Shown here piece after piece: positions 8,997-10,977 of a stretch of 64,000 nucleotides of DNA; positions within the stretch are counted from its first letter, which is position 1; every line of letters begins with the position of its first letter. The stretch comes from Escherichia coli (GTDB lineage Bacteria; Pseudomonadota; Gammaproteobacteria; Enterobacterales; Enterobacteriaceae). Under the pieces are notes generated by a model that worked only from the letters and a program-made list of their open reading frames with translations, ran no database searches and had not been told where the DNA came from. Position numbers and translations under genes: made by a program. Location of the stretch: NCBI RefSeq assembly GCF_003334765.1, contig NZ_QOWT01000002.1, one strand, 5' to 3'.

Positions 8997-10046
8997 ATGA
9001 CGAATATCACCTTACAGAAACAACATCGTACACTGTGGCATTTTATTCCGGGGTTAGCCCTGAGTGCAGTTATCACCGGGGTCGCCCTGTGGGGTGGTTC
9101 CATTCCCGCGGTTGCGGGTGCCGGGTTTAGTGCCCTCACCCTCGCAATCTTGTTGGGGATGGTTTTAGGCAACACCATCTATCCGCACATCTGGAAAAGC
9201 TGTGACGGTGGTGTGCTGTTTGCCAAGCAATATTTATTACGTCTGGGTATCATTCTTTATGGCTTCCGTCTGACGTTCTCGCAAATTGCCGATGTCGGTA
9301 TCAGTGGGATCATCATTGACGTGTTGACGCTGTCCAGTACCTTCCTGCTGGCTTGCTTCCTGGGGCAGAAAGTGTTTGGTCTGGATAAGCACACCAGCTG
9401 GTTGATCGGTGCCGGTAGCAGTATCTGTGGTGCTGCCGCGGTACTGGCGACTGAGCCGGTAGTGAAAGCGGAAGCCAGTAAAGTAACCGTGGCTGTTGCA
9501 ACCGTTGTTATCTTCGGGACCGTCGCGATTTTCCTCTACCCGGCGATATATCCGCTGATGTCTCAATGGTTTAGTCCGGAAACTTTCGGTATCTACATTG
9601 GTTCTACTGTGCACGAAGTGGCGCAGGTGGTGGCGGCAGGTCATGCCATCAGCCCGGATGCGGAAAACGCAGCAGTTATTTCCAAAATGCTGCGCGTGAT
9701 GATGCTGGCTCCGTTCCTCATCCTGCTGGCGGCGCGTGTTAAACAGCTGTCTGGGGCGAACAGCGGCGAGAAAAGCAAAATCACTATTCCGTGGTTTGCC
9801 ATCTTGTTCATCGTAGTTGCCATCTTTAACTCGTTCCACCTGTTACCGCAGAGCGTGGTGAACATGCTGGTAACGCTGGATACCTTCCTGCTGGCAATGG
9901 CGATGGCGGCGCTGGGTCTGACCACTCACGTCAGCGCGCTGAAAAAAGCTGGGGCGAAACCTCTGCTGATGGCACTGGTACTGTTTGCCTGGCTGATTGT
10001 TGGTGGTGGTGCGATTAACTATGTGATTCAAAGCGTCATCGCATAA
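8997..10046 (+). CDS. yeiH: Inner membrane protein YeiH (UPF0324), 349 aa; divergent from yeiE
   Basis: ORF track 349 aa, multi-pass membrane profile, good RBS (aaaggagagggttATG). Confidence 0.92.
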
Positions 10047-10060
10047 ACCACTACATCTTG

Positions 10061-10112
10061 CTCCTGTTAACCCGCTATCATTACCGTTTTCCTCCAGCGG
10101 GTTTAACAGGAG
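10061..10112 (+). promoter_or_regulatory. Long hairpin (about 16-bp stem with one bulge) whose 3' arm includes the nfo Shine-Dalgarno AGGAG
   Basis: ctcctgttaacccgct (10061-10076) pairs with agcgggtttaacaggag (10096-10112); nfo ATG at 10120. Confidence 0.5.
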
Positions 10113-10119
10113 TCCTCGC

Positions 10120-10977
10120 ATGAAATACATTGGAGCGCACGTTAGTGCTGCTGGCGGTCTGGCAAATGCCGCAATTCGCGCCGCCGAAATCGACGCAACC
10201 GCGTTTGCCTTGTTCACCAAAAACCAACGTCAGTGGCGTGCCGCACCGCTCACGACGCAAACCATCGATGAATTCAAAGCCGCCTGTGAAAAATATCACT
10301 ACACATCGGCGCAAATTCTTCCCCACGACAGTTATCTGATTAACCTCGGACATCCGGTCACTGAAGCTCTGGAAAAATCGCGCGATGCCTTTATAGATGA
10401 AATGCAGCGTTGCGAACAGCTGGGGCTTTCTTTGCTCAACTTCCACCCTGGCAGCCATCTGATGCAGATTTCAGAAGAGGATTGCCTTGCGCGTATTGCC
10501 GAATCCATCAACATTGCGCTGGATAAAACTCAAGGTGTGACAGCGGTGATAGAAAACACCGCCGGTCAGGGCAGTAACTTAGGGTTTAAATTCGAACATC
10601 TCGCGGCGATTATCGACGGCGTGGAAGATAAATCCCGCGTCGGCGTCTGCATTGATACCTGCCATGCTTTCGCTGCCGGGTATGATTTGCGTACTCCAGC
10701 CGAATGCGAGAAAACATTCGCGGATTTTGCCCGTACTGTCGGCTTTAAGTATCTGCGCGGGATGCACCTTAACGATGCGAAAAGCACCTTTGGCAGCCGC
10801 GTTGACCGCCATCATAGCCTCGGTGAAGGCAATATCGGTCATGATGCGTTCCGCTGGATCATGCAGGACGACCGTTTCGACGGCATTCCGCTGATCCTCG
10901 AAACCATCAACCCGGATATCTGGGCAGAAGAGATCGCCTGGCTGAAAGCGCAACAAACTGAAAAAGCGGTAGCCTGA
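10120..10977 (+). CDS. nfo: Endonuclease IV (AP endonuclease), 285 aa
   Basis: ORF track 285 aa, recognised Nfo sequence. Confidence 0.95.

Follow-up and report, generated by a model that had tools for sequence, protein, structure and literature searches.

Locus and hairpin geometry

The DNA analysed was a stretch of 64,000 nucleotides from Escherichia coli (contig NZ_QOWT01000002.1), referred to here as the window, and the element in question is a long hairpin encoded between the genes yeiH and nfo. Both genes are carried on the + strand (Table 1), and the TAA stop codon of yeiH (10044-10046) is separated from the nfo ATG by a spacer of 73 bp. Window coordinates equal the MG1655 coordinates minus 2240720, the nfo ATG being at 2250840 in MG1655. 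The initial annotation, made from the letters of the window, had placed in this spacer a stem of about 16 bp with one bulge, a 19-nt loop and the nfo Shine-Dalgarno sequence (SD) in its 3' arm. This description was borne out by the sequence and by folding.

RNA folding returned exactly the described 16-bp stem, with a single bulged U near 10102. The stem ends at 10112, or at 10113 when a G10060-U10113 pair is counted, position 10122 being the end of the ATG. The ungapped 13-nt core of the stem was recovered by a repeat search with a seed of 6. A scan of the whole window for inverted repeats (seed 9, length at least 13, distance at most 40) gave nine other pairs and not this one, and no weight was placed on it. 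The folding energy, which had been proposed as a check, was −23.3 kcal/mol for the 52-nt element as against −7.7 ± 2.2 kcal/mol for dinucleotide shuffles (z = −7.1; equalled by 0 of 200). In an 89-nt context the value was −28.7 kcal/mol (z = −5.6), and the stem was retained on folding in a 176-nt context.

The earlier statement that the structure is not a simple intrinsic terminator was upheld. The stem is GC-rich at its base, yet the loop has 19 nt where about 3-8 nt would be expected. The tail that follows the full stem in E. coli, UCCUCGCAUG, contains no T-run, and scanning of positions 9700-10300 gave no terminator-like site on the + strand. A simple intrinsic terminator was excluded for E. 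coli by the loop length, the lack of a U-tract and the lack of a match in the terminator scan. A search of positions 9500-10700 with the Rfam covariance models gave Sphinx_2 as its sole match, at chance level (E = 6.1).

Each of the 5426 complete E. coli genomes searched has the element, and has it once only; it is thus neither a chance occurrence nor a dispersed repeat. A repetitive extragenic palindrome, a bacterial interspersed mosaic element and a miniature inverted-repeat transposable element were likewise excluded by the single copy per genome, together with the single match of the hairpin covariance model (below) in the 64-kb window. The 61-nt element was present at 95-99% identity in 109 of the 5426 genomes. 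One sequence, NZ_CP031215.1 (E. coli sequence type 80), carries a rare 2-nt (TG) deletion in the 5' arm, equivalent to window positions 10065-10066, which also trims the spacer between the soxbox and the −10 hexamer by 2 bp. Either an error of assembly or a naturally occurring mutant of both promoter and stem may be behind it.

The nfo promoter and transcription start site

The distance from the nfo start codon to the transcription start site (TSS) is given as 34 nt for K-12 (RegulonDB v10.5) and 33 nt for EDL933 (Cappable-seq) in Supplementary Table S5 of PMC10469882. A single nfo TSS is listed in each of the two data sets, of which the EDL933 Cappable-seq set spanned eight conditions. With the ATG at its mapped position, these distances place the TSS inside the hairpin loop (Table 1). 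A peak of RpoD holoenzyme in systematic evolution of ligands by exponential enrichment (SELEX) also falls within the yeiH>nfo spacer (PMC3946193).

In the 30 Enterobacteriaceae species compared below, the T, A, T and final T of the −10 hexamer are invariant and positions 4 and 5 vary (TATCAT, TATGAT, TATACT, TATTAT); this TATnnT pattern is the signature of a sigma-70 −10 element and not of an RNA loop. The run ACCCGC-TATCAT is the best-conserved block of the spacer. The location of the nfo −10 hexamer and TSS in the loop was absent from the initial annotation.

Because the TSS is inside the loop, mRNA made from the nfo promoter lacks the 5' arm and carries the 3' arm only, and both arms are found together only on transcripts arriving from yeiH. 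It follows that the hairpin cannot regulate translation of the SoxS-driven nfo message. The nfo 5' end lies downstream of position 10076, the limit that had been set in advance for the structure to matter to that message, and a role in mRNA from the nfo promoter is excluded.

Regulation of nfo by SoxS is given in secondary statements, in PMC2989944, where the gene is called marbox/SoxS-regulated, and in PMC3709825. The soxbox/marbox-like 20-mer at the end of yeiH (ATCGCATAAACCACTACATC) differs from the consensus AYNGCACNNWNNRYYAAAYN at two positions, and matches of this quality occur at chance frequency (14 in the window against 16.4 expected). The putative soxbox is kept as ATGGCATAAACCACTACAT across genera, and its distance from the −10 hexamer is 35 nt in 27 of the 30 species (a partly hand-counted figure). 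In E. coli it is in forward orientation, 18 bp upstream of TATCAT, where about 18-19 bp would be expected of a class II promoter. Its conservation and fixed spacing to the −10 hexamer support a soxbox-like site at nfo.

The nfo promoter is reportedly of class II (Martin et al. 1999). In its putative forward soxbox over a poor −35 region, fixed −10 spacing and short 5' untranslated region (UTR), it resembles the class II promoters activated by SoxS, MarA and Rob, which were reportedly described by Martin et al. 1999, Jair et al. 1995/1996 and Li & Demple 1994. The likeness concerns the promoter nested in the hairpin and not the hairpin itself. We know of no discussion of the nesting of the nfo promoter in a conserved RNA stem.

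A further promoter-like site, with 9 of 12 matches (TTAACA-17-TACATT), lies at 10103-10131, across the 3' arm and the first nfo codons, and would start transcription inside nfo. It is probably spurious, no TSS being reported there.

Table 1. Coordinates of yeiH, nfo, the hairpin and the nested nfo promoter in the window
Feature	Position	Strand	Remarks
yeiH	8997-10046	+	
Soxbox/marbox-like 20-mer ATCGCATAAACCACTACATC (putative)	10038-10057	+	Overlaps the yeiH stop codon and the nfo −35 position
Hairpin 5' arm CTCCTGTTAACCCGCT	10061-10076	+	Contains anti-SD-like CTCCT; in promoter spacer, upstream of nfo TSS; fold, conservation, covariation
nfo −10 hexamer TATCAT	10076-10081	+	Start of the loop; 5-6 nt upstream of the mapped TSS
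Hairpin loop, 19 nt	10077-10095	+	Holds most of the −10 hexamer, the TSS and the first ~10 nt of nfo mRNA
nfo TSS	10086/10087	+	In the loop, downstream of the entire 5' arm; PMC10469882 Table S5
Hairpin 3' arm AGCGGGTTTAACAGGAG	10096-10112	+	Belongs to the nfo 5' UTR; fold, conservation
nfo Shine-Dalgarno AGGAG	10108-10112	+	7 nt 5' of the ATG; pairs with CTCCT 10061-10065
nfo start codon	10120-10122	+	Sequence, MG1655 mapping
nfo	10120-10977	+	

Predicted accessibility of the Shine-Dalgarno sequence

The accessibility of the SD was computed for RNA begun at the nfo TSS and for RNA begun upstream. The predicted probability that the SD is unpaired was 0.64 for RNA starting at 10086/10087 and 0.001-0.004 for RNA begun upstream. 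The corresponding predicted costs of opening the SD were 2-2.7 kcal/mol on RNA from the nfo TSS and about 10.5 kcal/mol on read-through RNA. Opening of positions −13 to +3 on read-through RNA was predicted to cost 12.7 kcal/mol, against 6.2 ± 1.6 kcal/mol when the sequence upstream of the TSS was shuffled (1 of 200). The structure of nfo RNA begun at its own TSS was unremarkable (z = −0.35).

The same relation was predicted for nearly all of the relatives. The cost on read-through RNA exceeded that on RNA from the nfo TSS in 29 of 30 species, the means being 12.1 and 3.8 kcal/mol, and in about 22 of the 30 the cost of opening the ribosome-binding site (RBS) on read-through RNA was above that of all 40 dinucleotide shuffles. 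By the general rule attributed to de Smit and van Duin, a gap of 6-8 kcal/mol in opening cost would be expected to lower initiation at nfo on read-through RNA by orders of magnitude.

In early nfo mRNA an anti-SD-like CCUCC is present at 10091-10095; it could pair weakly with GGAG at 10109-10112, with a small predicted effect on the SD. A C-rich run (UUUCCCC) is common at the same position in other genera.

Conservation and covariation in the Enterobacteriaceae

The comparison set comprised 80 nfo loci from genomes of the Enterobacterales, Salmonella and Klebsiella not being among them. The upstream neighbour of nfo was yeiH in most of the 80 loci, and the inverted repeat between the two genes was common to 30 species of the Enterobacteriaceae. 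The genera that bear it include Escherichia, Citrobacter, Enterobacter, Kluyvera, Leclercia, Lelliottia, Kosakonia, Pluralibacter, Pseudocitrobacter, Phytobacter, Shimwellia, Cedecea, Superficieibacter and Pseudescherichia. From these sequences a covariance model of the hairpin was built, and it matched the region 5' of nfo at each of the 31 hairpin-bearing Enterobacteriaceae loci and at no other place in 444 kb, with one match per locus and one in the 64-kb window; loci outside the family gave none.

Covariation was scored on the model-fitted alignment of 30 species, and the numbers from a MAFFT alignment were similar. Standard pairs occupied 86% of the pair cells, compared with 34-49% when the partners were slid. 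Double-sided changes were seen at 7 of the 16 pairs and in 12 cells, against 3.9 ± 1.8 cells in shuffles (reached in 0 of 500). The number of pairs with a double-sided change was reached in 5 of 500 shuffles and the number of further pair types in 4 of 500, these two measures being the least inflated by relatedness. Individual changes include U-A to C-G in Shimwellia, where an inserted A also pairs with the bulged U, C-G to G-C in Enterobacter ENT03, A-U to G-C in Kosakonia and U-A to A-U in Enterobacter Bisph1. On the aligned sequences the covariation is real but modest.

The loop varies widely in length, with 29 to 71 nt between the −10 hexamer and the ATG depending on the species, and the arms are kept. 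In every species TTT(T) comes after the inner stem CCCGC/GCGGG. A T-run directly after the full stem is seen in several genera, for example GGAGTTTTTT, and in some of them it amounts to U5-6.

In Citrobacter and Kluyvera the stem is extended by ATACTC/GAGTAT and closed by a 9-nt loop, and TTTAATTT follows directly 5' of the ATG. The last 50 nt before the ATG contain no AGGAG-type SD ahead of the conserved MKYIG start of nfo in these two genera.

Loci outside the family

In Serratia, Yersinia, Pectobacterium and others, a conserved extended −10 element (TGnCATAAT) lies about 25 nt 5' of the ATG; the form ATGnCATAAT was also recorded outside the Enterobacteriaceae. Serratia and other organisms outside the family often have a separate canonical terminator after yeiH in the same spacer. 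Some of these loci have an inverted repeat unrelated to that of the Enterobacteriaceae, with its 5' arm upstream of the −10 element and its 3' arm over the SD or the ATG. Such stems of the same layout and unrelated sequence were found upstream of nfo in some Serratia, Yersinia, Pectobacterium, Rouxiella, Photorhabdus and Morganella.

Among about 36 loci outside the Enterobacteriaceae, eight had an RBS opening cost that was reached by no more than 2 of 40 dinucleotide shuffles. A universal presence of the same architecture across the Enterobacterales, suggested by inspection of the loci, was only partly supported by the shuffle test, in which these eight are the ones that stand out. Outside the family the placement of the promoter within a hairpin is recurrent, not universal.

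Neighbouring genes

Downstream, the nfo stop (10977) and the start of yeiI (10980) are 2 nt apart, which suggests that the two genes are co-transcribed and possibly translationally coupled. An RpoD SELEX peak is nevertheless listed for the nfo>yeiI junction by Shimada et al. (PMC3946193). Upstream, the yeiH TSS distance given in PMC10469882 Table S5 is 51 nt from RegulonDB and 17 and 16 nt from EDL933 Cappable-seq, a disagreement that may point to alternative promoters of yeiH in the divergent region between yeiE and yeiH.

Discussion

The explanation that we favour, with moderate confidence, is that the hairpin acts as an occluder of the nfo RBS specific to read-through RNA and in this way insulates nfo from yeiH transcription. 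The terminator scan gave no other + strand site in the yeiH-nfo interval, and some read-through is therefore expected. Transcripts running past the yeiH stop codon would fold the stem with both of its arms, the nfo SD would be buried in it, and ribosomes would not initiate at nfo. Being untranslated, the nfo part of such RNA would presumably be open to pausing, Rho-dependent termination or decay. The nfo promoter, with its soxbox, −10 hexamer and TSS, would fire from inside the loop and yield an mRNA that escapes the stem and has an open SD. The net effect would be that Nfo output tracks its own SoxS/MarA/Rob-type promoter and not the YeiE-controlled transcription of yeiH. We infer that cells make read-through RNA, that its translation is blocked by the stem and that selection has maintained this block.

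The proposal of the initial annotation, occlusion of the nfo RBS by the stem on read-through transcripts, is partly supported. It agrees with predicted accessibility, conservation and covariation as regards transcripts from yeiH, and the stem has no such role in mRNA from the nfo promoter, whose TSS is in the loop.

The arrangement is like the fold-back inhibition of IS10 (Tn10) and IS50 (Tn5), in which the two arms flank the TSS of the gene and the 3' arm includes the RBS. In those elements RNA begun outside folds up and goes untranslated, and RNA from the native promoter begins between the arms and can be translated. Fold-back inhibition is said to have been described by Davis, Simons & Kleckner in 1985, Krebs & Reznikoff in 1986 and Schulz & Reznikoff in 1991. 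Three features of the type are present or predicted at nfo: the SD is in the 3' arm, the TSS is between the arms, and the RBS is predicted to be closed on external RNA and open on native RNA. Lowered translation of read-through transcripts in vivo, relieved when the stem is disrupted, would be the fourth. There are differences as well. The gene is a chromosomal, stress-inducible gene of DNA repair, the outside transcription comes from a specific neighbour, yeiH, and the −10 hexamer is itself in the loop; the nfo element may also double as the 3'-end structure of the neighbour.

The left end of IS200 combines a terminator against impinging transcription with an inverted repeat that sequesters the SD (PMC4513863). 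IS200 and nfo are alike in that protection from upstream transcription is combined with sequestration of the SD in a stem-loop. In IS200, the SD stem lies within the 5' UTR of the transposase gene, so that the native mRNA is also repressed, and insulation is provided by a separate bidirectional terminator; at nfo, one stem would do both and the native mRNA would be spared. Retroregulation by the sib element of phage lambda is a further parallel, the promoter of origin deciding in both cases whether the structure exists. It differs in that sib is located downstream of int, acts by way of RNase III and 3' decay, and is governed by the end point of transcription and not by its starting point.

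Several observations weigh against insulation by RBS occlusion as the function of the hairpin. In Cedecea and Enterobacter Ag1 the inner stem is longer and is followed by TTTTG, with the SD outside it, and the predicted occlusion is weak. Little excess occlusion was predicted in Pluralibacter gergoviae, Kosakonia, Enterobacter sp. R1(2018) and Escherichia sp. ESNIH1, and all of these weak cases are compatible with a terminator-first role. Citrobacter and Kluyvera keep the stem without having any AGGAG for it to cover. Since the 5' arm is situated in the promoter spacer, its conservation could in part be related to the promoter. The inner stem ACCCGC/GCGGGT is invariant across the species and uninformative on covariation, and column shuffles such as those applied here can be beaten by related sequences that have no structure at all. 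The ratio of G.U to A.C combinations was 34:16, but it is due largely to one terminal pair and leaves the folding strand undecided. Taken together, the variants suggest that what is conserved is the outcome, namely that no Nfo is made from yeiH transcripts, whether by occlusion, by termination or by both.

These variants bear most directly on the possibility that the hairpin primarily serves the 3' end of yeiH, as a weak or non-canonical terminator or as a stem that blocks exonucleases, with RBS occlusion a by-product of a compact spacer. We regard this as an appreciable but lesser possibility. The structure resembles an intrinsic terminator in that a GC-rich inner stem directly after the stop codon is followed by TTT, as in every species compared, and derivatives of it in Cedecea and Citrobacter are terminator-like. 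The lengthened inner stem with TTTTG and an outlying SD in Cedecea and Enterobacter Ag1, the long stem, 9-nt loop and TTTAATTT of Citrobacter and Kluyvera, and the T-runs right after the full stem in several genera (GGAGTTTTTT) all fit such a role, as does the lack of any other terminator between yeiH and nfo. The canonical terminator in the spacer of Serratia and others makes it appear that termination after yeiH is needed. Against this, the 19-nt loop and missing U-tract of E. coli are unlike an intrinsic terminator and should terminate poorly. In Cedecea, CTCCTG has stayed complementary to CAGGAG even though an insertion lies between it and the inner stem. Hairpins of other sequence cover the RBS in Serratia oryzae, Yersinia, Pectobacterium and Morganella, and that of S. 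oryzae exists besides a separate canonical terminator. The two roles are not exclusive, and a hairpin that insulates nfo may also shape the yeiH 3' end.

The stem could also serve in translational control of nfo mRNA from a second promoter upstream of 10061, as a thermosensor or as a stem opened by a small RNA or by RNase III. The signs of selection on the structure would agree with this, and by general knowledge of the enzyme the stem should be long enough to be an RNase III substrate. It is nevertheless very unlikely, given that the only nfo TSS, in RegulonDB and under the eight conditions of the EDL933 Cappable-seq, is the one in the loop, that no Rfam family was matched and that positions 9700-10060 contain no promoter-like site.

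A DNA-level element around the −10 hexamer and TSS, such as an operator for a dimeric regulator or a cruciform controlling the nfo promoter, is suggested by the exact bracketing of both by the inverted repeat and by the invariance of the inner half-sites. It is highly improbable in view of the arm-to-arm distance, which varies from about 15 to more than 50 nt between species, and of arms that change together and preserve complementarity instead of a fixed recognition sequence. In E. coli about 36 bp separate the centres of the half-sites, a repeat that is imperfect and has a 19-nt spacer is poor at cruciform extrusion, and we know of no candidate protein.

Finally, a chance or relic palindrome, its arms constrained separately by the promoter spacer and by the SD and 5' UTR, would account for the SD in the right arm, the position of the left arm between soxbox and −10 hexamer and the inner stem that never varies, but it can hardly be correct when promoter spacer sequence is normally free to vary and when compensatory substitutions, a compensating indel, a fold z of −7 and stems kept despite turnover of the loop are considered.

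It is a speculative and rather unlikely extension of the insulating function proposed for nfo that 'promoter in the loop' hairpins are a general, unrecognised means of insulating regulated genes from co-directional upstream neighbours. Possible outcomes of such hairpins are translational silence, Rho-dependent polarity on the read-through RNA, or a conditional switch; in the last case RNase III or a factor acting in trans could open the stem, and yeiH/YeiE-driven transcripts would also yield Nfo.

As a textbook member of the soxRS regulon, nfo has an induction ratio that depends on a low basal level. As an occluder the hairpin would be a further case of a known mechanism, a neat design that would be no great surprise to a specialist. 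Should the insulating role be wrong, the element would be an odd yeiH 3' stem overlapping a promoter. If it is right, reporter fusions or synthetic constructs in which a foreign promoter drives nfo and sequence upstream of 10061 is included should translate poorly, and merging of yeiH and nfo into one operon on the basis of RNA-seq continuity would overestimate their co-expression. It would also explain how a 73-bp spacer without a canonical terminator keeps nfo tightly SoxS-dependent, and would extend a mechanism of insertion sequences to ordinary chromosomal gene pairs.

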